Virus record (IMG/VR): IMGVR_UViG_2574180358_000007
Source of the DNA: a virus
Lineage: Duplodnaviria; Heunggongvirae; Uroviricota; Caudoviricetes
Length of the DNA: 12,024 bases
Strand: one strand, 5' to 3'
Part shown: positions 1 to 12,024 of the stretch, in pieces
Layout of the letters: each line of letters opens with the position of its first letter
How positions within the stretch are numbered: the first letter of the stretch is position 1
Translations under genes and position numbers: made by a program
Notes under the pieces: generated by a model
Database searches by the model: none
Told to the model about the DNA's origin: nothing
What the model saw: the letters and a program-made list of their open reading frames with translations, nothing else

Positions 1-1209
1 TCATAAAGACTTGCTACTTTCTAATTCTGGGTTTCTGGATCTATTTTTACAACCTGAACCCGGCTGGGAATTTAGTATATCTTTTATCAAATCTTGTTCG
101 ATAGCATTTATTAAGAGCATTATGTCGAATTTATGCATGTCGTCTCCCCCTTCAGTCCTTAGATGTTCGGATGTGGTGAGTTGAGTCGCTAATTTGCTGT
201 TTGGCCCCCAAACAATATTATTCTCGAATTTCCCTTCATGCATTCGGTTATTATATATACAGTATTGTCTAATGTTTAATGCACTGGCTAAATGTACAAT
301 GGCAGTATCTACAGTTATAACAAAATCAGCATGGCGAACCAATGCAAATGAGCATCCTGCATCAGAAAATGGAGACAGAGACACATAATCCAATCCATTG
401 TGATTAATCTGTTTTCCCATGTTAAAAACTATTGTGTGATATCCCTTAAGATTGTTAAGGTAAACTAGTACTTTGTTTATCTGTTCATCAGATAAGGTTC
501 TGCTATTCTGAGAGCCATAAGGGTTAAATATAACTAATTTTTTGTTTTTCTTCCTGAATTCATTTGCAACAATATTTGCTGGCTCATATATTTTGTTGTC
601 AAAATTAAGCGCTGCAGCGTAATCATTATTTTTTATCTTTAGTAAAGATAAAACTTTTTTCATTCTTTCAGATGAGTGAACGGAACGGTTATCGATTATA
701 TTTGTATCAAAAATAGTTACGGCAGGATGATTAAAACAGATAGAGTGTTTAGGTTTAAGTAAATATAGTGTTTGCAATCTGGTTATCGCTGTGTTATCAA
801 AATTTGAGAAGTCAACAACAAGATCTACATTCAGTTTTTTTATCTTTGCTTTTAGTTCGTTAAATTTATTTTTCTCGTAAGAAATAAAGGCATCCACGCC
901 AACAATATCAGTAAAGAGGAATGATACTCTTGGAGGTGCTATCACATATACCACCATACCGGATTCTTGAAGTTGTTTAATAAACCCTGAGGTAACGATG
1001 CCGTCACCAATGGCCTGCATGTGCATGAAAATGCACACTGTTTTATAACTATCCGACTGTAATGATGTTTTCCTTCTGTATCGCATTTTTAGAAATGCCA
1101 GTCTGGCCTTCGTCTTTATCTTTTTTGTTTTAATATTTCGCTGTCTGTTAAGCTGTTTTAATGATGAAATAACATTCATAATGGTACCCTGAAATTCCAA
1201 ATCACTCAT
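1..1209 (-). CDS. Glycosyltransferase family 9 (heptosyltransferase-like) protein; start codon uncertain
   Basis: Minus-strand ORF ending at TAA (bases 3..1). The C-terminal half carries GT9-like motifs read from the translation: KKLVIFNPYGSQNSRTLSDEQ and ADFVITVDTAIVHLASALNIRQ, which resemble the HPGAS..K.WP and VGNDSGPMHLAAA regions of heptosyltransferases. An N-terminal Rossmann-like start is at KTVCIFMHMQAIGDG. The track ORF begins with GTG at 1347 and would overlap tfa; in-frame ATGs lie at 1209, 1179 (AGGG about 7 nt upstream) and 1086, and I chose 1209 without strong support. Codon usage is very A/T-rich and Lys-rich. Confidence 0.55.
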   Translation of the reverse strand: MSDLEFQGTIMNVISSLKQLNRQRNIKTKKIKTKARLAFLKMRYRRKTSLQSDSYKTVCIFMHMQAIGDGIVTSGFIKQLQESGMVVYVIAPPRVSFLFTDIVGVDAFISYEKNKFNELKAKIKKLNVDLVVDFSNFDNTAITRLQTLYLLKPKHSICFNHPAVTIFDTNIIDNRSVHSSERMKKVLSLLKIKNNDYAAALNFDNKIYEPANIVANEFRKKNKKLVIFNPYGSQNSRTLSDEQINKVLVYLNNLKGYHTIVFNMGKQINHNGLDYVSLSPFSDAGCSFALVRHADFVITVDTAIVHLASALNIRQYCIYNNRMHEGKFENNIVWGPNSKLATQLTTSEHLRTEGGDDMHKFDIMLLINAIEQDLIKDILNSQPGSGCKNRSRNPELESSKSL

Positions 1210-1273
1210 GTCATTCGAAACGAGCAGGGTACTATACAAAAAACTGGACTTCAATGGTTTGAAATGAAAGCCT

Positions 1274-1873
1274 TTATGCTTGTTTACTCCTTGATTCCAC
1301 TGGGGAAGCAGGCCACTCAATATCCGGTGCACTTGATGTATCAACACGGTTCAGCAATACCCGATACTTTTTCCATGCTTCCAGCAACGAGATTTCTTCC
1401 TCCGTTGCAATTTCCAGATCTGCAGCATCCTGAAGCGGCGCAATATGCTCACTGGCTACCTGCATCAGGTTGTTTTTTGTTTCTTCCGCCTCCCGTATCC
1501 GGAACAGTTTTTCTGCTTCCGTATCCTTCACCCAGGCTATGCCGTTCCACTTCTGATATTCCCCTTCCGGCGACAACCAGGTAACATTTTCCGGTAACGG
1601 ACCGAGTTCAGAAATAAATAACGCATCGCCGAAAGCCACGTCATAAACCGTTTTACCACGATGATCTTCAACGAGATGCCAGGACGCCTCATCACTGTTG
1701 AAAATAGCCACGAAGCCAGCCGGAATATCTGGCGGTACAATATCGGTACTGTTTGCAGGTAGACCTGTATGAGGTGGAATATATGTGTCACCTTCACCAA
1801 TAAATTCATTAGTTCCGGCCAGCAGATTATAAATTTTGATGGTTCGTGATTGTTCACTCATTCTGAATGCCAT
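1274..1873 (-). CDS. tfa: Phage tail fibre assembly protein (lambda Tfa / TfaQ-TfaR-TfaE family)
   Basis: The 199-aa translation [44 protein letters not shown]...[14 protein letters not shown] matches, from memory, the tail fibre assembly proteins of E. coli cryptic prophages (Rac, Qin, e14) almost residue for residue. ATG at 1873, stop TAA at 1276..1274. Confidence 0.85.
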
Positions 1874-1903
1874 TATGCAAGCCTCACAATATAGTTAAAT
1901 GCA

Positions 1904-2371
1904 ATGTTTTTGACGGTGTTTTCCGCGTTACCAGCAGCGTTAACGGTGATGGTGTGTCCATGTGAGCCAATCGCAACGGAGTGCGTGTGTGCACCAATAA
2001 AGGCAGTACGGGACCGGGTTCACAATGAACTCAATGCCGGACATCCGGTACCGGGGTTTAAACTGGTAACAGGAAAACAAGGTAACCGGGCCTGGAGTGA
2101 TGAAGAGGCAGCTCGCGCACTTCTGAAGGACCAGTTCAGGTACAAAACTGAAGAAGTATTCGACTTTAAACTTATTAGTCCCACAAAAGCCGAAAAACTT
2201 ATCAAAAAGGCCAGTCCGCGCCGTTGGTCAAAAGTCGAGGCACTGATAACACGAGCTGATGGTAAACCCACCGTCGTTCCCGAGTCAGACCCACGCCCCG
2301 TACTCAATATCAACCCTGTAAATGATTTCGACGACGTATCCGACGATACGCTAACCGCAGACCTCATCTGA
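1904..2371 (+). pseudogene. 3' remnant of a DUF2800-family (PD-(D/E)xK nuclease-like) phage replication gene; N-terminal part missing
   Basis: A 155-aa ORF ends 16 bp before the DUF2815 gene on the same strand, the position a full-length DUF2800 gene (about 400 aa) occupies in this conserved module. The translation FKLVTGKQGNRAWSDEEAARALL...KPTVVPESDPRPVL looks like the C-terminal region of such proteins as I recall them. In-frame stops lie immediately upstream and tfa on the opposite strand ends only 30 bp away, so no room exists for the N-terminal two thirds. Confidence 0.4.
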
Positions 2372-2386
2372 TTTAAGGAAATACCC

Positions 2387-2935
2387 ATGAAACTGAAGCT
2401 GAACAATGTTCGTCTGGCCTTCCCGTCTCTGTTTGAAGCTAAAACTGTAAACGGCGAAGGCGAGCCGCGTTTCTCCGCAGTATTTTTAATGTCACCCAAA
2501 CACCCACAACTGGAAGAAATCCGTAAAGCTATGAAGCAGGTAGCGAAGGAAAAATGGGGAGAGAAGTGGGAGCCCATTTATAGCCAGCTGGAGAAAAAAC
2601 TCAATCTGTGCCTGCATGATGGTGATGAAAAAGCAGAGTATGAAGGCTTCCCCGGCAATTTCTTCCTGAATGCTGCTAACAAAGCGCGCCCAGCTGTTCT
2701 TGATCGCGATCGTTCGCCACTAATTCAGGCTGATGGACGTCCCTATGCAGGGTGCTATGTAAACGCCGTTATCGATATCTGGGCACAGGACAATAATTTC
2801 GGTAAACGCATTAATGCCTCACTCGGCGGAGTCCAGTTCCTGCGAGACGGCGATGCATTCGCTGGCGGCGGAGTGGCAAGCGCTGACGATTTCGACGATA
2901 TCAGCGAAGGCGCTGATGCTGAAGCACTAATTTAA
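2387..2935 (+). CDS. DUF2815-family phage protein (predicted ssDNA-binding, replication module)
   Basis: The translation MKLKLNNVRLAFPSLFEAK...RFSAVFLM...LCLHDGDEKAEYEGFPGNFF...LDRDRSPL...GRPYAGCYVNAVIDIWAQDNNFGKRINASLGGVQFLRDGDAFAGG follows the DUF2815 consensus as I recall it. SD AAGGA lies about 8 nt upstream of ATG 2387. Position between the DUF2800 remnant and PolA fits the known module order. Confidence 0.8.
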   Translation: MKLKLNNVRLAFPSLFEAKTVNGEGEPRFSAVFLMSPKHPQLEEIRKAMKQVAKEKWGEKWEPIYSQLEKKLNLCLHDGDEKAEYEGFPGNFFLNAANKARPAVLDRDRSPLIQADGRPYAGCYVNAVIDIWAQDNNFGKRINASLGGVQFLRDGDAFAGGGVASADDFDDISEGADAEALI

Positions 2936-2986
2936 AAATATTCATCCCCCAGCTACGTGCTGGGGTATCTCATGAGGGAAAGTATA

Positions 2987-3628
2987 ATGTCACAGCCCGT
3001 ATTAACTAATCACCTTAAAACTCAAATCATCAATAACGCACTTGAGAAAGCGGGTATTCCCAAACGTAAATCAGCACTACGAGCTGCTCGTGTTGAATGG
3101 GCCGAACGTGTTCGGCTTGCAGCTATCGGGGGCGTAGAGAAAGAAGCTGAAATATTAAAAAATATAAAAAAGATTGAATCCATGGTCACAAAAATCCCTG
3201 ATTCATTAAAAACCAATAGTTCTTTAATTCGAAAAGATTGCTGCATATATCTCAATCTGGCTGGAGCCAGAGCAAACATTTATTTCAATGGCAACTACAG
3301 AGGTTATGAATCAGGAGCCCCCGAGCATATTAATAAAATAGCACCTGCAGAATTTACTCTACTTGGCGAAGATCCTCTGGTAACGGAGTTTTATAGCTTT
3401 GATGCTCTCTACACACAAATTAAAAGTGATGAAACCGAAATCATACAGAACGTCAGCGCGGCTCTAAATAAAGTTCGGACAGTAAAACGATTACTGGATG
3501 TATGGCCCGAAGCTAAAGAACTGCTTCCAACAGACGCACCGCCAGTCCCTTTAGCACCAGCAGTACATCGAGAGACATTAAATGAAATGATAGGCCTTCC
3601 TACCAATACAGTGTCTGATACTCAATAA
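2987..3628 (+). CDS. Hypothetical protein (A/T-rich insert between DUF2815 and DNA polymerase)
   Basis: Uninterrupted ORF; GAGGGA lies 7 nt upstream of ATG 2987 (alternative ATG 2972, track start GTG 2957). No family recognised from the translation. Composition is A/T-richer than the flanking replication genes. Confidence 0.5.
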   Translation: MSQPVLTNHLKTQIINNALEKAGIPKRKSALRAARVEWAERVRLAAIGGVEKEAEILKNIKKIESMVTKIPDSLKTNSSLIRKDCCIYLNLAGARANIYFNGNYRGYESGAPEHINKIAPAEFTLLGEDPLVTEFYSFDALYTQIKSDETEIIQNVSAALNKVRTVKRLLDVWPEAKELLPTDAPPVPLAPAVHRETLNEMIGLPTNTVSDTQ

Positions 3629-4311
3629 CAAGGGGGATGCTTATTATATGATTTTGAACGTTTTACAATCTCGTTAAGAGGCGTGAAATCAAAATCTCTG
3701 AATAACACATCAGGATACTTCGCTCTTGCTTTATCCTGCAGACCAGTTAAAGTATTTTTTGTGTTACCCAACATTGTATTAACCGCCACTACATGTCTAA
3801 TTTCTGGAGGTTTATCTATACCACCAGAAATTGCTTCATTAAGAACCGACGCCAGTGGGGTTTGTCCCTTACTTGTTGAATCCCACAGCGTCATTAACAG
3901 ACGAGCTGCGTCTATAAATAGCTTTTTGTCAGCATTTGGCTTGACAGTAATACCAGAACTACCTGAGCCAGAACCGGAACGTTCTATTGCTGCACTGGTA
4001 TCCGATTTCATAGGATTAAATAACGGCAGCTCTGTACAACCGATACGCCGAATGAAATCCTTTGCAACATCTCTACCACAGAAAAAAGCCCCTGTACAAT
4101 TTTCATCAGAGCGTTTTTTAAATGAAAAACAATAGTACTGATCGGTTAACGGATAACCGGAATAACTGGTTTTAGTTTGTCCAGTAATAAGTTTCAGGTG
4201 TGCAACAGGCTGAATAATAAAATCCCGAACTATCGCATCTTTTATGTCGTTACCACGGTGACAATAATATTCAGGTAATCCATTAGGCTGTCTCTTATTA
4301 CCCACAGTCAT
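3622..4311 (-). CDS. Hypothetical two-domain protein with a Gly/Ser linker, encoded antisense to the replication operon
   Basis: 229-aa ORF with a strong SD (AAGGAGA, 6 nt spacer) upstream of ATG at 4311..4309. An internal SGSGSGSSG linker separates a Cys/His-containing N-terminal half from the C-terminal half. The 3' end overlaps the 3' end of the convergent gene 2987..3628 by 7 bp. No family recognised. Confidence 0.6.
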   Translation of the reverse strand: MTVGNKRQPNGLPEYYCHRGNDIKDAIVRDFIIQPVAHLKLITGQTKTSYSGYPLTDQYYCFSFKKRSDENCTGAFFCGRDVAKDFIRRIGCTELPLFNPMKSDTSAAIERSGSGSGSSGITVKPNADKKLFIDAARLLMTLWDSTSKGQTPLASVLNEAISGGIDKPPEIRHVVAVNTMLGNTKNTLTGLQDKARAKYPDVLFRDFDFTPLNEIVKRSKSYNKHPPCY

Positions 4312-4372
4312 TAGTTGTCTCCTTTAATTCATGATATCTAGCATTTAACCATATACCATATGAGGATATTTT

Positions 4373-6436
4373 ATGTCCAATATACTATGGGGCGACCTGG
4401 AAACCTATTGTGACATTCCGATCAACAACGGTACCCATGCGTATGCCGAAGGCGTTGAAGTGATGCTTTTCGCATGGGCTATCAACGACGGGCCAGTAAA
4501 CGTGTGGGATATCACTGCCGGTGGTGGTATTCCACACGGCTTATACGAAGCAATCGCAGACCCTGAAACCCTGCTTTATTTCCATAACTCTCACTTCGAC
4601 CGCACCGTTCTGCGTTATGCAATGCCGCGACTGGCACCGCCTGTCGAACGTTGGCGCGACACGATGGTGCAGGCGCTGGCGCACGGTCTTCCGGGGTCTC
4701 TGGGGGAACTCTGCGAAGTACTAGGCGTCCCGCAAGACAAAGCGAAGGACAAAGAAGGTAAAGCGCTGATCCAGCTGTTCTGTAAGCCACGCCCGAAAAA
4801 CAGCAAACTGCGTCGGGCCACCAGTAAAACCCACCCGGAAGAATGGCGGCGCTTTGTTGCTTACGCCGGACTGGATATCGAGGCAATGCGCGAAGTCTAT
4901 AAACGTCTGCCGAAGTGGAATTATCAGGGGACAGAACTGGCGCTCTGGCATCGTGATCAGCAGATCAATGACCGGGGCGTCTGCATGGACATGCAACTCG
5001 CACGCGCTGCGATCGAAGCGGTAGACCAGGAACAAAAGCGCCTGGCAAAGCGTACACAGGAAATGACTGATGGCGAAGTGCAGGCAGCCACACAACGAGA
5101 CGCGTTGATTAAGCACATTGTTGAATCCTACGGTGTGGAGCTACCAGACATGCAACGCAGTACTCTGGAACGTCGTATTGCCGACCCCGATTTACCATCT
5201 GCCGTGAAAGAACTGCTGGCTATCCGACTGCAGGCCAGTACTACCAGCACCAGTAAATACAAGGCACTAATGAAAGGCGTAAGCCACGACGGGCGCTTAC
5301 GCGGTACGCTACAGTTCTGCGGGGCGTCACGTACCGGTCGTTGGGCCGGACGGCTATTCCAGCCCCAGAATCTTCCCCGCCCTTCACTAAAACAGGAACA
5401 AATAGACGAAGGCATCGAAGCACTGAAAGCCGGATGTGCAGACCTGCTGTTTGACAATATCATGGAACTAACCAGTTCAGCGTTACGTGGCTGCATTATC
5501 GCGCCAACAGGCAAAAAACTGGTGGTAAGTGACTTGTCGAACATTGAAGGCCGTATGCTGGCATGGTTGGCAGGAGAAGAATGGAAACTGAATGCATTCA
5601 GAGAGTACGACGCCGGAACGGGTTCGGACTTATATAAACTGGCGTATGCAAAAGCTTTCGATATTGCACCAGATGATGTTGATAAACACATGCGTCAGAT
5701 CGGTAAAGTCATGGAGCTCGGTCTGGGTTATGGTGGTGGTGTATCGGCTTTCATCACTTTTGCGCTGGTTTACGGTCTCGATCTCGACGAGCTGGCGAAC
5801 GCCGCATTGCCAAACATTCCCCGCGATGTTATCCGCGAGGCGAAAAGCTGGTACGACGAATCGGTTAAACGCAAGTCAACCTACGGGCTTTCTGAACGGG
5901 TATTTATCGCCTGCGACTCACTTAAACGTCTCTGGCGCAGGGCGCACCCGGCGACCTGCGATTTCTGGTACGAACTGGAGCGCACCGTCCGCACAGCAAT
6001 CGCCACACCGCAAAAAACATTGTATTGCGGCTATCTTAAAATCCGACGTGATGGCGCGTGGCTGCGCATACAGCTACCATCCGGACGCGCTGTATGCTAC
6101 CCGTCTCCGGTTATCGAAAAAGGGAATATCACCTACAGGGGTGTTAACTCTTATTCGCGTAAATGGCAACGACTCAAAACCTACGGCGGAAAGCTGGTGG
6201 AGAACGTCACCCAAGCAGCCGCCCGCGACGTTCTGGCCGGAAACATGCCGCTGATCGAGGATGCAGGTTACAGCATTGTGCTGACGGTACACGATGAGGT
6301 AATCACCGAGGCGCCGGACACTGACGATTTCAACGATAAAGCGCTTTCCGCGCTGCTCTCCACTAACCCCGAGTGGGCACCCGATATCCCGCTGAACGCT
6401 GGCGGCTTCGAGGCGTACCACTACCGTAAGGATTAG
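4373..6436 (+). CDS. Family A DNA polymerase with 3'-5' exonuclease domain (phage-type, no 5'-3' exonuclease domain)
   Basis: Exonuclease motifs WGDLET (Exo I) and [12 protein letters not shown] (Exo II). Polymerase motif [20 protein letters not shown], motif [17 protein letters not shown], motif [18 protein letters not shown] lies 6 nt upstream of ATG 4373. Confidence 0.9.
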
Positions 6437-6449
6437 CTGATCGCTGTCA

Positions 6450-6478
6450 TTGCTGCTTTGCTAAATATTGCTTATTTT
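6450..6478 (+). promoter_or_regulatory. Putative sigma70-type promoter upstream of the TIR-like gene (TTGCTG, 17 nt spacer, TATTTT)
   Basis: Hexamers read by eye in the 53-bp gap between the polA stop and the TIR-like start. The match to consensus is weak and the -10 element sits very close to the SD. Confidence 0.2.
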
Positions 6479-6489
6479 ATAGGAAAATA

Positions 6490-7251
6490 ATGATGCAGGA
6501 TCTCAATGAAATGGCTCTCAAATACCCACACCCTGTCGAAACTTTTCGTCAATTTTTAGTCGAATCCGGATTTGATGTTACCGGAGAAGAAAACAAAGCC
6601 GGTCATGATTGTTATCGTTTAAGTAATGGTGCCATCATAACGCTTTACCACACCGGAACGATTTTGATTCAAGGCTCACAAGCGGCAAAACCAGAGGTTG
6701 AAGCCATTATTAATGAACACTTGGGTAACGCGCCAGCTCAACGAGTTCAGCCAGCCCAGTTTCAAGAGCCAGCCAAAAAGATTTTCATCGTTCACGGTCA
6801 CGACCATGCAGCAAAAGAGCAGCTTGAGCTCATTCTTCATAAGCTTGGGTTACCTGATCATTTTATTTTGCAGAATACAGGCGGTACTGGACTTACGATA
6901 ATTGAAGAACTTGAGCGTGAAATTGGTCAAGGGCAGACAGCGACTCGTTTCGGCATTGTTCTTCTCACTCCCGATGATGTGGGGTACTCCAAAAGAGACG
7001 GTCAAGAAGCAGCCCTGCCCAGGGCTCGTCAAAACGTAGTTCTAGAAATGGGGATGTTGTTATCATCACTCGGGCGCAGTAACGTGGTCATCTTGCAGAA
7101 GCAACACCTTGAACAGCCTTCTGATGCTGCGGGTATTCTTTATCTCAACTTTAATGATCATGTTCGAGAAACTGTACCTCGCTTAATCCAGCGTCTTAAA
7201 CAGGCCGGTTTCACATTTAATGAAGCTCAAATAGCGAACGCTTCATCTTAA
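6490..7251 (+). CDS. TIR-like domain protein (COG4271 / Cap12-PycTIR-type predicted nucleotide-binding fold) with an N-terminal domain of about 95 aa of unknown function
   Basis: The C-terminal approx. 150 aa, KIFIVHGHDHAAKEQLELILHKLGL...IIEELERE...FGIVLLTPDDVGYSKRDG...PRARQNVVLEMGMLLSSLGRSNVVILQKQHLEQPSDAAGILYL, follows the TIR-like consensus as I recall it (FIVHGhD ... AIVLlTPDD ... RARQNVifELGyf.GkLGr.rV ... PSD..G). SD AGGA lies 5 nt upstream of ATG 6490. An intrinsic terminator follows immediately downstream. Confidence 0.6.
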   Translation: MMQDLNEMALKYPHPVETFRQFLVESGFDVTGEENKAGHDCYRLSNGAIITLYHTGTILIQGSQAAKPEVEAIINEHLGNAPAQRVQPAQFQEPAKKIFIVHGHDHAAKEQLELILHKLGLPDHFILQNTGGTGLTIIEELEREIGQGQTATRFGIVLLTPDDVGYSKRDGQEAALPRARQNVVLEMGMLLSSLGRSNVVILQKQHLEQPSDAAGILYLNFNDHVRETVPRLIQRLKQAGFTFNEAQIANASS

Positions 7252-7279
7252 TCAATCATTTTCCTAAAATGTAAAAAAA

Positions 7280-7301
7280 CCCTGCAAATGCAGGGTTTTT
7301 T
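7280..7301 (+). terminator. Rho-independent terminator downstream of the TIR-like gene (A-tract, GC hairpin, T-tract; potentially bidirectional)
   Basis: aaaaaaa-CCCTGCaaatGCAGGG-TTTTTTgttt is read directly from the sequence, 29 bp after the TAA stop at 7249..7251. Confidence 0.75.
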
Positions 7302-7317
7302 GTTTGAGGTAACCCCT

Positions 7318-7539
7318 ATGTCATTTAAATATCGGGACAGTCCCCTTTATTACCGGACTGCGCGGGAGGCTTTGCGCCTTGAGCAGATCGGCGAGTACGA
7401 CCGGGCGGCAAAAGCCTGGGCCAAAGCCAACCGCGAATCACGTAACGCACTGAATCAGGACTGGAGCGAACGCCGGTCTGATTTTTGCCTGATGCAGAAC
7501 ATGCGCGAAAAGCGTAAGGCGGTGGACGATGGCGTATGA
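7318..7539 (+). CDS. Small hypothetical phage protein (73 aa) translationally coupled to VRR-NUC
   Basis: ATG 7318 with GAGG about 10 nt upstream. Its stop TGA 7537..7539 overlaps the VRR-NUC start ATG 7529 (ATGgcgtATGA arrangement). The track ORF start at 7288 lies inside the terminator hairpin and is rejected. Confidence 0.5.
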   Translation: MSFKYRDSPLYYRTAREALRLEQIGEYDRAAKAWAKANRESRNALNQDWSERRSDFCLMQNMREKRKAVDDGV

Positions 7540-7801
7540 GCGTGAAAGCCTTATCGAAAAGCACCTCATCGCCGAAGTGAAAAAGGCTGGCGGGATCGCC
7601 TTTAAGTTTGTGTCACCCGGTCGCCGCTCGGTACCGGATCGGATTGTCCTGTTACCCGGCGGTCGTCTCGTCTTTGTCGAATGCAAAGCACCTGGCAAAC
7701 CACCACGCACCGACCAGCTGCGCGAGCATGAACGGCTGCGCGCGCTGGGCTTTACCGTGGTGGTGCTGGATAGCAAAAATCTTGAGGGGATATTATTTTG
7801 A
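7529..7801 (+). CDS. VRR-NUC domain nuclease (PD-(D/E)xK fold)
   Basis: 90-aa product with PDRIVLLPGGRLVFVECKAPGKPP, matching the VRR-NUC D...E.K core. It sits in the expected module position upstream of the SNF2 helicase. Confidence 0.8.
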   Translation: MAYERESLIEKHLIAEVKKAGGIAFKFVSPGRRSVPDRIVLLPGGRLVFVECKAPGKPPRTDQLREHERLRALGFTVVVLDSKNLEGILF

Positions 7802-8437
7802 TTTATCTTTAGGGCTGAGCAAACATGAACGGAAAGCATTCCGTTCTTCAGTACTGGATTTGATAAACGTGAAGTCCTTATCTGCATCTAATAGCTTAAA
7901 CGCCACCTCGTTAGTATCACATTTACCCACCAGAACCTTCTCACCCACGTTGTTAACAAGATGGTATCCTGGTATTTCTCTAACGATATATTTACCTGAA
8001 GAAACCCAAGCACTTATTTGAGCAACTGACGAGGTACATAACATTGTGAAGAGTGCAATAAGAACAACGTTGCTACCAGAAAGACTCCGAAAAGATTTAT
8101 GCCCATCCATTAACAGCTGCCACGTTAACAGTATGGGATAAAATGCAATAAAACAAATAGCGAAAACAATTGGTTTTCCGCCACTCATGTAAAAACCGAT
8201 CGGATTAACCAATCCAACAAACGAAAAATACAACACCGCCGCAACAACCGTAGTTAAAACAAAAGAGAGCCAGTACCTACTTAACTTATAAACCCTAAAT
8301 GAAGTAGCTATCGCTATAAAAATAGGCACTGAAGCCAAACCAGTAAATGAAAGAGTTTTTAGCAGCGAGCTAACATCTATCAATATAAAGTCAGCAGGAT
8401 AACTAAAAAAAATAAGCGAAAGACCATTGATAAACAT
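7793..8437 (-). CDS. Predicted integral membrane protein (about 5 TM helices) with a small soluble C-terminal domain; function unknown
   Basis: 214-aa ORF with ATG at 8437..8435 and no clear SD. Hydrophobic stretches LSLIFFSYPADFILIDV, GLASVPIFIAIATSF, WLSFVLTTVVAAVLYFSFVGLV, IVFAICFIAFYPILLTW, VVLIALFTMLCTSSV are followed by a polar approx. 65-aa tail. Visibly A/T-rich, antisense to the flanking replication genes, and overlapping the VRR-NUC 3' end by 9 bp. Confidence 0.6.
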   Translation of the reverse strand: MFINGLSLIFFSYPADFILIDVSSLLKTLSFTGLASVPIFIAIATSFRVYKLSRYWLSFVLTTVVAAVLYFSFVGLVNPIGFYMSGGKPIVFAICFIAFYPILLTWQLLMDGHKSFRSLSGSNVVLIALFTMLCTSSVAQISAWVSSGKYIVREIPGYHLVNNVGEKVLVGKCDTNEVAFKLLDADKDFTFIKSSTEERNAFRSCLLSPKDKSK

Positions 8438-8560
8438 ACACCAATAAATATGTAAAAATAGAGATCGCAGTTATTAGCGGAATTTTTTGGTCCCATAAAG
8501 ACTCCGAACGTTCAATTGTGGTCATATTCATATCATCATTATTTACATTGAGTGGCGTTT

Positions 8561-9958
8561 ATGAGTATAAACTTATTCTCACCCCATCCATATCAAAACC
8601 TCATCATAAACCACGAAATTGACACTCTGCGCTGCAACATCTGGGCGGGTATGGGAATGGGTAAAACCGTGGCGACGCTCACCACGCTGGAAGATCTTTT
8701 TATGGCGGGAGCGGAGACACAGCCCGCGCTGGTGTTGGCACCGCTGCGCGTAGCCGCCAGCACATGGCCGGATGAAGCGGTTAAATGGGGGCATTTGCGC
8801 AATATCGAGGTGCAGCCGATTATCGGTAATGCCAAAGCACGCGCGGCGGCATTGGCGAACAGCAACGCCAGCGTGTTTACAATCAACTACGACAATCTGG
8901 TCTGGCTGGTGGAAGAGCTGGGCGACAGCTGGCCGTTCGGTACCGTCATTCCGGATGAAAGCACCCGGCTAAAATCCTTCCGGCTGCGAGGTGGTGGTAA
9001 GCGCGCGGCGGCGCTGGGCAAAGTGGCGCATAAGTATGTCCGGCGCTGGATAAATCTCACCGGGACGCCAGCACCGAACGGCCTGGTAGATTTGTGGGGA
9101 CAAGCGTGGTTTGTGGACCAGGGGCAACGTCTCGGACGCACTTACGGCGCGTTTACCTCACGCTGGTTCAACTCGATACAGTTTCCAGGGCAGAGCTGGA
9201 CCAAACTGGAGCCGTTTGCTCACTCACAGGCTGAAATACAGCGAGCATTAGCCGATGTGACCCTCTCGCTGGATGCGGCCGACTGGTTCGATATCAAAGA
9301 CCCCATCCATAACGTAATCCGCGTGGATATGCCGCCGAAGGCCCGTCAGCAGTATCGTGAAATGGAAAAGGAAATGTTCCTCGAGCTGAATGGCGAAGGC
9401 ATCGAAGCACCGAACGCCGCGGCAAAGACACTGAAGTGTCTTCAAATCGCCAGTGGCGCAGTATACACAGACGACACCGGAAGTTGGTCAGAACTGCATG
9501 ACACCAAACTACAGGCGCTGGACAGCATACTGACCGAAGCAGCTGGCGCACCTGTGCTGGTTGCTTATCACTGGAAACACGATCTTGAACGCTTGCTTAA
9601 AGCATTCCCTCGCGGTCGTCACCTCGACCAGGATCCACAGACACTGCGCGACTGGAATTCCGGAAAGATTCCTGTTCTCTTTGCACACCCAGCCAGCGCG
9701 GGCCACGGCCTGAACATGCAGGACGGCGGGAATATACTGGTATTTTTCTCACACTGGTGGGACCTGGAGCAATATCAGCAAATTATTGAACGTATCGGCC
9801 CCACCAGGCAGATACAGGCCGGACACAATCGTCCGGTATTTATTCACCACATTATTGCTGCCGACACTATGGACGAAATGGTGATGGAGCGGCGCAACTC
9901 AAAACGAACAGTGCAGGACATCCTGCTCGATGCCATGAAAAAGAGAGGTATAGCATGA
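8561..9958 (+). CDS. SNF2-family (DEAD-like) helicase of the phage replication module
   Basis: Walker A GMGKT, motif II IPDEST, SNF2 motif III LTGTPAPNGLVDLW, and C-terminal helicase motifs HPASAGHGLNMQ and QQIIERIGPTRQ. ATG 8561 is preferred over the track GTG 8552; only a weak SD is present. Confidence 0.85.
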   Translation: MSINLFSPHPYQNLIINHEIDTLRCNIWAGMGMGKTVATLTTLEDLFMAGAETQPALVLAPLRVAASTWPDEAVKWGHLRNIEVQPIIGNAKARAAALANSNASVFTINYDNLVWLVEELGDSWPFGTVIPDESTRLKSFRLRGGGKRAAALGKVAHKYVRRWINLTGTPAPNGLVDLWGQAWFVDQGQRLGRTYGAFTSRWFNSIQFPGQSWTKLEPFAHSQAEIQRALADVTLSLDAADWFDIKDPIHNVIRVDMPPKARQQYREMEKEMFLELNGEGIEAPNAAAKTLKCLQIASGAVYTDDTGSWSELHDTKLQALDSILTEAAGAPVLVAYHWKHDLERLLKAFPRGRHLDQDPQTLRDWNSGKIPVLFAHPASAGHGLNMQDGGNILVFFSHWWDLEQYQQIIERIGPTRQIQAGHNRPVFIHHIIAADTMDEMVMERRNSKRTVQDILLDAMKKRGIA

Positions 9959-10155
9959 GCGAGAAACCCGACGATTTACTCACCCCGGATGAAGTATGCC
10001 AAAAGTTAGGTATTACACAGAAAACGCTATGTGAGTGGAATATTAAGCATCGTCATCGGGCTATCCTGGCACCAATTCGTTTCAGTGCAAAAGTAGTTCG
10101 TTATGAGCGCCGCAATGTCGACGCTTTTATTCAAAAGTGTCGCAGCCGGTATTAA
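9955..10155 (+). CDS. AlpA/Xis-family helix-turn-helix protein (putative excisionase or transcriptional regulator)
   Basis: 66 aa, LLTPDEVCQKLGITQKTLCEW...VVRYERRNVDAFI, matching the AlpA-type pattern (HTH followed by a conserved VRY/W segment). The start ATG overlaps the helicase stop (ATGA), with AGAGAGG upstream. Confidence 0.65.
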   Translation: MSEKPDDLLTPDEVCQKLGITQKTLCEWNIKHRHRAILAPIRFSAKVVRYERRNVDAFIQKCRSRY

Positions 10156-11549
10156 CCTCGCCGCCGTAGCAATGCCACCTGCGCAAGTATGCTCCGCTCG
10201 TGAGCCTCGAAAGCTTCGCGCTTTAACGCAATCTCTTCCTGCAAAATCTCATCAGAAAAGTCGTAATGTTCTGCCATCGGGTCATCTGACTTGCTGGAGT
10301 GGTGAAGGCAAAGGAGGCTGATTTCCCTTCGGTCTGATCGGGAATAGCCTCTTTCCTTCATCAAGGCAATAACATTGCTCTTAAGGAATTTACGGCACAT
10401 CGTATTAAATGCACCGTCTTTCCCTTTAACAGTCCCATCATGTTTTATTCCTTTTACAGCCCCATCCGGGCTGTATGTTTTCACTAGCTTATCCAGTGAT
10501 CGTTTTGAAAATGGCTGCATTGGATCACGCGGCTGCAAAAATACATAATCCCTGTTGCACTCAGGAACTGAATCACGCCATGCTTTCTGCTCGTCGATAA
10601 TCCGCCGGATCTCCGGCGTTATTGGCAGGCGGAAAGCCTTTTGTGTTTTCATAGCCCCTCGCATGCCGATAACCCCTTCAGGATAAACAATTTCGCCAGT
10701 CTCCTCGTGAACGTAGTCCCAGCGCAGGTTATGGACATTAATCGGACGAACGCCGGTGATGATCATGAAGCGAACAGCATTCTTCTGGTGTACAGAGGTG
10801 CAGGCGGCAACATTGAGCCAGAGCCGGGCGATTGACTCAATATCGGTAAAAAGCCGTGTGGGGGTGGGTTTCTGTACGCGGGAGGAAACATAATCATCTG
10901 GCAGACTGGCAGCAACATTGCGACCGTTACAAAGAGTAGGTGCGCAGAACTTCCAGAACCGACGGAGCTCGGCAAACAACTCCAGGGCGTTATTGTTCGA
11001 GCGAGTGGCGATCCACTCGTCCAGCACTTCCACTAGCCGATTGTATGTTACGTCGCCGAACACCTCGCGCTCGCCGAACGTGGCTTTAATCCGGTCGATA
11101 CGCACCCCGTAGGTTGTGAAACTGTCCGGGCTCAGCTTCTGCCGGGCTACTTTAGCTTTGAGGTCATCCCGGTACATTTCCAGCGCTGCATGTACGGACT
11201 CTGCCCGCAGTCCACCGTCAGCCATACCTAGTGCTTTTTCGCGCGCCAGCTGGATAGCGAGCTCCGGCCACTCGCCAAGCTTTTTACCTTTGAGGCCCAT
11301 CTTTTTTGGAAACTCGGCGTAAAATGTAACCTTACCGGCTTTGCTGAAATCGATACGGAGATAGTTCTCTTTTTCGTATTTGGAACGGCGAGCCACGCCG
11401 GAAGCGGCGAGGATGATTTTGGCAGCAGCAACACAGATTTTCATGTGTGCGCTGATATAGGGGGGTTTACAGGCGTCCCATTTTTCAGATGCGGCTAAAA
11501 CATCGTCATTATTGGGGCTATCCGGATTATGTGTTACAGTGCGCGGCAT
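10152..11549 (-). CDS. int: Tyrosine-type site-specific integrase (P4-like family)
   Basis: An N-terminal arm-binding-like segment (YLRIDFSKAGKVTFYAEF) precedes the catalytic domain (MIITGVRPINVHNLRWDYV ... LLCLHHSSKSDDPMAEHYD, with a C-terminal Tyr candidate). ATG at 11549..11547 has AAGGA 6 nt upstream. The track start is TTG at 11555, and an alternative ATG lies at 11444. Confidence 0.85.
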   Translation of the reverse strand: MPRTVTHNPDSPNNDDVLAASEKWDACKPPYISAHMKICVAAAKIILAASGVARRSKYEKENYLRIDFSKAGKVTFYAEFPKKMGLKGKKLGEWPELAIQLAREKALGMADGGLRAESVHAALEMYRDDLKAKVARQKLSPDSFTTYGVRIDRIKATFGEREVFGDVTYNRLVEVLDEWIATRSNNNALELFAELRRFWKFCAPTLCNGRNVAASLPDDYVSSRVQKPTPTRLFTDIESIARLWLNVAACTSVHQKNAVRFMIITGVRPINVHNLRWDYVHEETGEIVYPEGVIGMRGAMKTQKAFRLPITPEIRRIIDEQKAWRDSVPECNRDYVFLQPRDPMQPFSKRSLDKLVKTYSPDGAVKGIKHDGTVKGKDGAFNTMCRKFLKSNVIALMKERGYSRSDRREISLLCLHHSSKSDDPMAEHYDFSDEILQEEIALKREAFEAHERSILAQVALLRRRG

Positions 11550-11754
11550 TCTCAATCCTTATCTGCGTAGGCGCAGAAAACAAGCTCACACATATAAGTC
11601 TTTTCTACGGGACAAAATGCAATGTGTTGCGGTTTTGTGTTGCTGGACTGAGTTTATCAAGGTTAAATACACTGGATCAACATACAGTAAGTTAATGACG
11701 GTAAAGCATACAAACTCGATACAACTTACTGATTTTAAAATGATTTAACGGTAA

Positions 11755-12024
<270 letters not shown>

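Follow-up and report, generated by a model that had tools for sequence, protein, structure and literature searches.

How did a phage tail fibre assembly gene (tfa) come to lie directly beside a replication gene of the DUF2800 family? Both are found near the left end of the 12,024-nt stretch of prophage DNA analysed here (hereafter the window), and the replication gene is far shorter than the usual members of its family. A first-pass annotation made from the sequence had proposed that the element is a cryptic prophage whose morphogenetic region disappeared in one deletion or illegitimate recombination event with breakpoints near 1874..1903, or that it is a chimera of two phage remnants. We examined the genes on both sides of the scar, mapped the junction and compared the element with longer relatives at the same chromosomal site.

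The start of tfa on the minus strand at position 1873 was confirmed. Its 199-aa product matched Pfam Caudo_TAP (PF02413) with an E value of 4.2e-43 over profile positions 1-130 of 131, and the score of 147 bits against a cut-off of 22.1 makes this a full-length family match. The tail fibre gene (stf) that should precede tfa had been reported as absent. A complete copy is indeed not present upstream, but the last 41 stf codons and the stop codon, a remnant of 125-127 nt, are still in place. All 41 residues are identical to residues 167-207, the C-terminus, of the stf copy in genome FDAARGOS_943, a copy likewise annotated as a pseudogene with an incomplete N-terminus. In the minus-strand translation the stf stop overlaps the tfa ATG as TAATG, as it does in intact phages, and the same 1-nt overlap is annotated in FDAARGOS_943. 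The interval 1870..1910, where microhomology at the scar had been expected, therefore contains no junction: it is the native stf-tfa boundary, contiguous sequence that is common to about 3900 E. coli genomes. The match of the window to intact stf ends at 1999.

The 155-aa open reading frame on the plus strand had been described as a C-terminal DUF2800 fragment. This description holds for residues 32-155, which by BLASTP are identical at 122 of 124 positions to residues 310-433 of the MINF_2E protein, but not for codons 1-31, which are the antisense strand of the stf remnant. Consistent with this division, the match to the DUF2800 profile (PF10926; E 9e-22) spans residues 32-132 of the reading frame and covers just profile positions 272-368 of 368 (97 C-terminal model positions). 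The expectation that a complete DUF2800 protein of around 400 aa had been truncated was borne out, as the intact homologue has 433 aa. The intact protein carries a PDDEXK_1 domain (PF12705) at residues 7-255 that is wholly deleted in the window, so that 29% of the protein is left and the nuclease domain is gone. Judged from these alignments, the DUF2800 piece is a gene fragment and not a member of the family in any functional sense.

We read no recognisable ribosome-binding site for the 155-aa frame from the sequence, and a promoter and terminator scan of 1200..2450 gave matches no commoner than in shuffled sequence; the one promoter-like site upstream of the frame falls within chance expectation. 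The frame is an accidental fusion and most probably a pseudogene that would have no function of its own. In the scar-bearing genome L6-21, PGAP marks both the stf and the DUF2800 pieces as incomplete pseudogenes. The exact 155-aa protein is found on 45 public contigs, where it is named 'Bbp38' or hypothetical, and a 140-aa version is found on one further contig. At 90% identity the protein falls into a cluster with the full-length proteins of 433 aa and thus does not represent an independent small-protein family, a possibility that would have argued against truncation.

The gene to the left of tfa encodes a glycosyltransferase of family 9 (GT9) that corresponds to RefSeq CDS WP_032161795.1 and occupies the equivalent position in L6-21 and FDAARGOS_943. 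Its GC content is low (30-39%). It forms the left end of the prophage, on the yfhH side, where it is the gene that natively follows tfa, and it lies outside the scar. Strain 2020CK-00188 has a serine acetyltransferase gene at the GT9 position, and prophages at other loci contain GT9-tfa-stf at 95% identity as well. The features of the window are collected in Table 1.

Table 1. Features of the window, with positions counted from its first nucleotide.
Feature	Position	Strand	Basis or extent
Glycosyltransferase family 9 (GT9) cargo gene	1..1179	-	Pfam Glyco_transf_9, 8e-06
tfa, full-length, 199 aa	1274..1873	-	ORF list and Pfam Caudo_TAP
stf 3' remnant, 41 codons and stop	1873..1999	-	Minus-strand translation, match to stf of FDAARGOS_943
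Chimeric 155-aa ORF	1904..2371	+	31 antisense-stf codons fused in frame to the DUF2800 remnant
Deletion junction, 2-nt microhomology TA	1998..1999	.	Three-way alignment
DUF2800 / PD-(D/E)XK nuclease gene, 3' remnant	1998..2371	+	nt 929-1302 of 1302, residues 310-433 of 433
Right arm, whole	2387..11555	both	Pfam matches, L6-21 RefSeq annotation
DUF2815/Enc34 SSB (PF10991)	2387..2935	+	Pfam/RefSeq annotation of L6-21
Nmad5	2957..3628	+	Pfam, E 1.7e-54
Hypothetical, 229 aa	3622..4311	-	No Pfam or PADLOC match
Family A DNA polymerase (PolA)	4373..6436	+	Pfam/RefSeq annotation of L6-21
TIR protein	6490..7251	+	Pfam CAP12-PCTIR_TIR, 5.8e-31
ANR-type regulator	7288..7539	+	Pfam/RefSeq annotation of L6-21
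VRR-NUC	7529..7801	+	Pfam/RefSeq annotation of L6-21
Membrane protein	7793..8437	-	Pfam/RefSeq annotation of L6-21
SNF2 helicase	8552..9958	+	Pfam/RefSeq annotation of L6-21
HTH_17	9955..10155	+	Pfam/RefSeq annotation of L6-21
Tyrosine integrase	10152..11555	-	Pfam/RefSeq annotation of L6-21
18-bp attachment core AATTGTGATATGTGTGAA	11794..11811	+	Inside yfhL 5' end; right element boundary

The junction was mapped with a megablast search of window positions 1..4400 against 5426 complete E. coli genomes and a three-way alignment of the window with an intact DUF2800 gene and a longer stf copy. Genomes with an intact DUF2800 gene matched the window over 1998..4400 at up to 99.5% identity, and FDAARGOS_943 matched it over 1..1999 at 99.8%, a clean split of the search results. 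Read from the left, the window tracks stf to ...GCACCAA, continues with TA, and then follows DUF2800 from AAGGCAGTACGG..., so the alignment to relatives with an intact DUF2800-DUF2815-PolA module places the breakpoint at 1998/1999, and the interval proposed earlier lay about 100-125 bp too far left. The dinucleotide TA is the sole sequence common to both parents at the join. Over the 22 nt around it the parents agree at 8 positions, a value equalled or bettered by 16% of random registers between the two genes, and there is thus no meaningful homology at this site. Few shared nucleotides and flanking similarity at chance level are what is expected of an illegitimate deletion at a microhomology. 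The alignment revealed no IS copy, IS end, terminal repeat or target-site duplication at 1998/1999.

Two further explanations of the breakpoints were tried and rejected. The four parental breakpoints, compared by eye with the footprint of IS5 (YTAR) or of another transposon that targets TA, gave no fit and no IS ends, and no extended or imperfect homology above chance was found at the breakpoints.

Both sides of the junction come from one prophage. FDAARGOS_943 carries a longer version of the element at the equivalent site between yfhH and yfhL, with nucleotide identities of 99.75% to window positions 1..1999, 99.77% to 2515..7346 and 99.94% to 7334..12024, and its GT9, TIR, VRR-NUC, helicase and HTH proteins are identical to those of L6-21. 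This prophage also bears IS66, IS110, IS600 and ISEc60 together with an IS600-associated deletion. The order in L6-21 is yfhH, a tail-protein fragment, GT9, tfa, the stf remnant, the DUF2800 remnant, DUF2815, Nmad5 and PolA, followed by TIR, VRR-NUC, helicase, HTH, int and yfhL.

As intact relatives we used the 42-kb prophage of MINF_2E and the 42.7-kb record ON470579 (Escherichia phage vB_EcoM-606R2). Both are 96-99% identical in nucleotide sequence to the window over the 3' part of DUF2800, DUF2815, PolA, helicase and int, and share its gene order and chromosomal site. From the left, they contain yfhH, cargo or a Pin-invertible segment, tfa, stf, and the baseplate, tail, head, terminase, lysis and Q genes, and then the VapE primase, cro/repressor, two small genes, DUF2800, DUF2815, PolA, helicase, int and yfhL; their genes lie on the strands that the window also uses for them. 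They differ from the window in that they keep the structural, lysis, regulatory and primase genes and the 433-aa DUF2800 protein, and their left end has a Pin-invertible tail fibre segment (tfa'/stf' and pinE) instead of GT9. In these phages tfa and the replication module stand at opposite ends of the genome, so the proximity of the two genes in the window is not a routine arrangement. The equivalents of the two breakpoints are 28.7 kb apart in MINF_2E and 29.2 kb apart in ON470579. Because the exact undeleted parent is absent from the genome collection, in which FDAARGOS_943 is the closest copy, the deleted length was estimated from these intact relatives, which are more distant and have different stf C-termini.

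The right boundary of the element is an 18-bp attachment core that adjoins the tyrosine integrase gene. A second copy adjoins yfhH in a sister genome (locus L001, 8400-8417), about 600 bp past the left edge of the window, and it is accompanied there by the displaced original 5' end of yfhL; this copy was seen in the sister genome only. Taken together, the cores in yfhL and beside yfhH give a remnant of about 12.4 kb, which has the integrase and, by virtue of the copy in L001, the repeated attachment site that are expected of a prophage. A repeat search limited to intergenic regions found no attachment repeat; the core lies within the yfhL coding sequence.

These results bear on the idea that the window is a chimera, in which recombination or insertion united remnants of two unrelated phages. 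Since stf-tfa cassettes occur in thousands of unrelated E. coli prophages, the left side alone is not diagnostic of any one phage. However, each side matches one end of a single yfhH-yfhL prophage, that of FDAARGOS_943, with an identity of 99.75% or more, their orientation is collinear with the intact relatives, and the one attachment core in the window has its partner beside yfhH in the sister genome. Because the intact relatives are collinear with the window, a single internal deletion suffices and a chimera is not needed; we consider a chimeric origin scarcely credible.

Several details of the integration site were observed in addition. The gene yfhL is a published site of prophage integration (PMC3603311; PMC12029490) and is one of the genes that Bobay et al. 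2013 (PMC3603311) list as 'disrupted' by integrating phages. The 18-bp core covers yfhL codons 11-16 (window 11764-11811; L001 8370-8426), and the phage provides a replacement yfhL start in place of MALLITKKCI..., so that yfhL is still an 86-aa reading frame. The displaced 5' end beside yfhH reaches a stop after 18 codons. Between yfhH and GT9, at L001 8594-8891 (about 110-400 bp left of the window start), lies a frameshifted 'phage tail protein' fragment without its N-terminus, on the strand opposite to stf. A former invertible segment may have left it behind as the relic of an alternative tail fibre C-terminus.

To the right of the junction, the neighbours of the DUF2800 remnant are its usual partners in a replication module composed of DUF2800, an Enc34-type single-stranded DNA-binding protein (SSB) and a family A polymerase. 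As the first-pass annotation had stated for structural and lysis genes, none were detected in the window by the ORF list or Pfam, and the same holds for immunity genes. The capsid, tail, terminase, lysis, repressor and primase genes that are absent from the window are all present in MINF_2E and ON470579.

Two intervals of this arm vary between relatives. The TIR gene lies between those for the polymerase and VRR-NUC, and its product matches PDC-S35, a candidate single-gene defence system in PADLOC (1.6e-109). In MINF_2E and 2020CK-00188 this slot is occupied by a gene for an ATP-binding protein in the reverse orientation. The comparison suggests a slot for variable cargo that the deletion spared. 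Nmad5 and the 229-aa minus-strand reading frame lie between the genes for the SSB and the polymerase; the corresponding interval of ON470579 and 2020CK-00188 contains one shorter minus-strand hypothetical reading frame without an annotated Nmad5, and has no DNA-level match to the window.

The window is very probably the remnant of a prophage of about 42 kb that underwent a deletion of about 29 kb by RecA-independent illegitimate recombination. The proposal that the element is a cryptic prophage and that an internal deletion took away its morphogenetic region is thus upheld by the identity to FDAARGOS_943, the collinear relatives and the size of about 29 kb that they give. The parent would have been a myovirus-like temperate phage that integrated into the 5' end of yfhL. 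The deletion would have joined a point 125-127 nt before the end of stf to nt 929 of the 1302-nt DUF2800 gene, removing most of stf, the baseplate, tail, head, terminase and lysis genes, the Q antiterminator, the VapE primase, repressor/cro, two small early genes and the first 309 DUF2800 codons. The repressor and both early promoters would thereby have been lost along with Q, lysis and all morphogenesis genes, and the predicted outcome is a non-inducible cryptic prophage, a harmless remnant. Because only TA is common to the parents, the recombination would have been illegitimate, and neither homologous nor IS-mediated nor site-specific. The ends may have been joined by end joining, replication slippage or topoisomerase-mediated exchange on minimal microhomology, pathways among which a 2-nt overlap does not discriminate. 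A one-step deletion is the parsimonious reading of a junction that records the last event only; successive overlapping deletions would leave an identical scar, so 'one deletion' is not proven.

The int-helicase end of the prophage was found in 161 of the 5426 complete E. coli genomes and the DUF2800 region in 157, among which the gene is intact in 153 and truncated in four. Three of the truncated copies (ECZP248, L6-21 and ET729) have the exact junction of the window (type A). The fourth, in strain 2020CK-00188 (locus L006, 6014-6260), is a second stf-DUF2800 deletion (type B), in which a stf remnant of 245-247 nt is joined to nt 417 of DUF2800. The type B parents likewise share exactly TA at the join, and the two types account for every truncated DUF2800 copy in the 157 carrier genomes. 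Type B has different cargo genes, its tfa is only about 88% identical to that of the window, and at 1987, 1990 and 2011 the window departs from it and is identical to undeleted relatives. Type B is therefore independent of the event recorded in the window. These junction-proximal mismatches also rule out the window as a nested derivative of type B.

Decay in several steps, through nested or overlapping deletions or through a deletion mediated by an IS that was lost afterwards, would fit a prophage family that gathers IS elements and IS-associated deletions, as in FDAARGOS_943, and whose sister genomes bear IS903B and IS1A. By geometry alone, the shallower deletion in 2020CK-00188 could even be an intermediate. 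The junction, though, bears none of the marks of an IS described above, and the mismatches and the divergent tfa show that the window does not descend from type B. We regard a multi-step history as improbable.

IS903B was also considered as the cause of the deletion and rejected, as it is a later simple insertion. This 1057-bp element lies in tfa, 150 bp from the junction, in all three complete genomes with the scar, where it is flanked by a 9-bp duplication (GGTTCGTGA) of window positions 1841-1849, and it is absent from the window. Read against these genomes, the window is an earlier, IS-free state of the scar-bearing lineage. ECZP248 has an additional IS1A; the tfa of L6-21 is annotated by PGAP with an internal stop, and the window and L6-21 differ by a substitution at 1532.

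In recombination by serine invertases, the strands are exchanged with a stagger of 2 nt. Given that the intact relatives have pinE and an invertible stf/tfa segment, and that both independent junctions show exactly 2 shared nucleotides, such a stagger would fit the TA overlap if a Pin-type invertase had recombined a crossover site in stf with a quasi-site in DUF2800. We take the sites of the Din family (Pin/Gin/Hin/Cin) to be 26 bp long, of the type AAACC-NN-GGTTT, and centred on the exchanged dinucleotide. A generic inverted-repeat search missed the Pin sites, and a targeted 26-mer comparison found them: the genuine sites in MINF_2E (locus L004, 17448-17473 and 19257-19282) agree with the family consensus at 15 of 16 positions, and the former lies 282-307 nt upstream of the stf stop. 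In contrast, the four parental breakpoint regions reach 7-9 of 16 against the same consensus, their best matches are not centred on TA, and the window lineage has no pin gene. An invertase-mediated deletion is accordingly a very remote prospect, and illegitimate recombination is preferred.

The recurrence of TA at both junctions raised the question of whether the stf 3' end and the DUF2800 interior form a recurrent deletion pair in the yfhL prophage family. If they did, breakage and joining might follow a specific process, for instance through an enzyme that cuts at TA, or else through a replication or packaging intermediate that unites both regions, or the end points might be under strong selection. 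Two junctions with a shared TA could equally have arisen by chance, and two of roughly three independent decay events are too few for a hotspot claim. We consider a recurrent pair unlikely.

Cryptic prophages of E. coli K-12 such as e14, Rac, Qin, DLP12 and CP4-57 contain orphan stf/tfa fragments. The window resembles them in that an integrase and scattered genes are kept, morphogenesis and lysis are lost, tail fibre genes are truncated and IS elements arrive later. It differs in its module of family A polymerase, DUF2800, DUF2815, VRR-NUC and SNF2 genes, in its myovirus-like character and integration in yfhL, and in the presence of near-identical longer relatives at the locus, which allowed the scar to be mapped to the nucleotide. 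Illegitimate deletion in E. coli is known from spontaneous lacI deletions, lambda-bio formation and alternative end joining, and the window is similar in joining unrelated sequences at 2 nt without the signature of a mobile element or recombinase site. A literature search on the phage name 606R2 returned unrelated papers only, and one on DUF2800/DUF2815 returned phage genome papers, none on this E. coli yfhL prophage. The scar is ordinary prophage decay, already known in kind, and its pseudogenes are already flagged in public annotations.

The meaning of the finding is mainly one of annotation. The 'Bbp38' or hypothetical 155-aa frame is a fusion artefact to be treated as a pseudogene, and tfa and the GT9 gene belong with the polymerase module in one decayed prophage. 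For the E. coli clone in which it occurs, the mapped scar can be used to mark the lineage. The element also offers a clean, nucleotide-resolved example of prophage inactivation or domestication by what would be one illegitimate deletion, which takes immunity, lysis and morphogenesis together while the cargo at both ends, GT9 and the candidate-defence TIR gene, survives.
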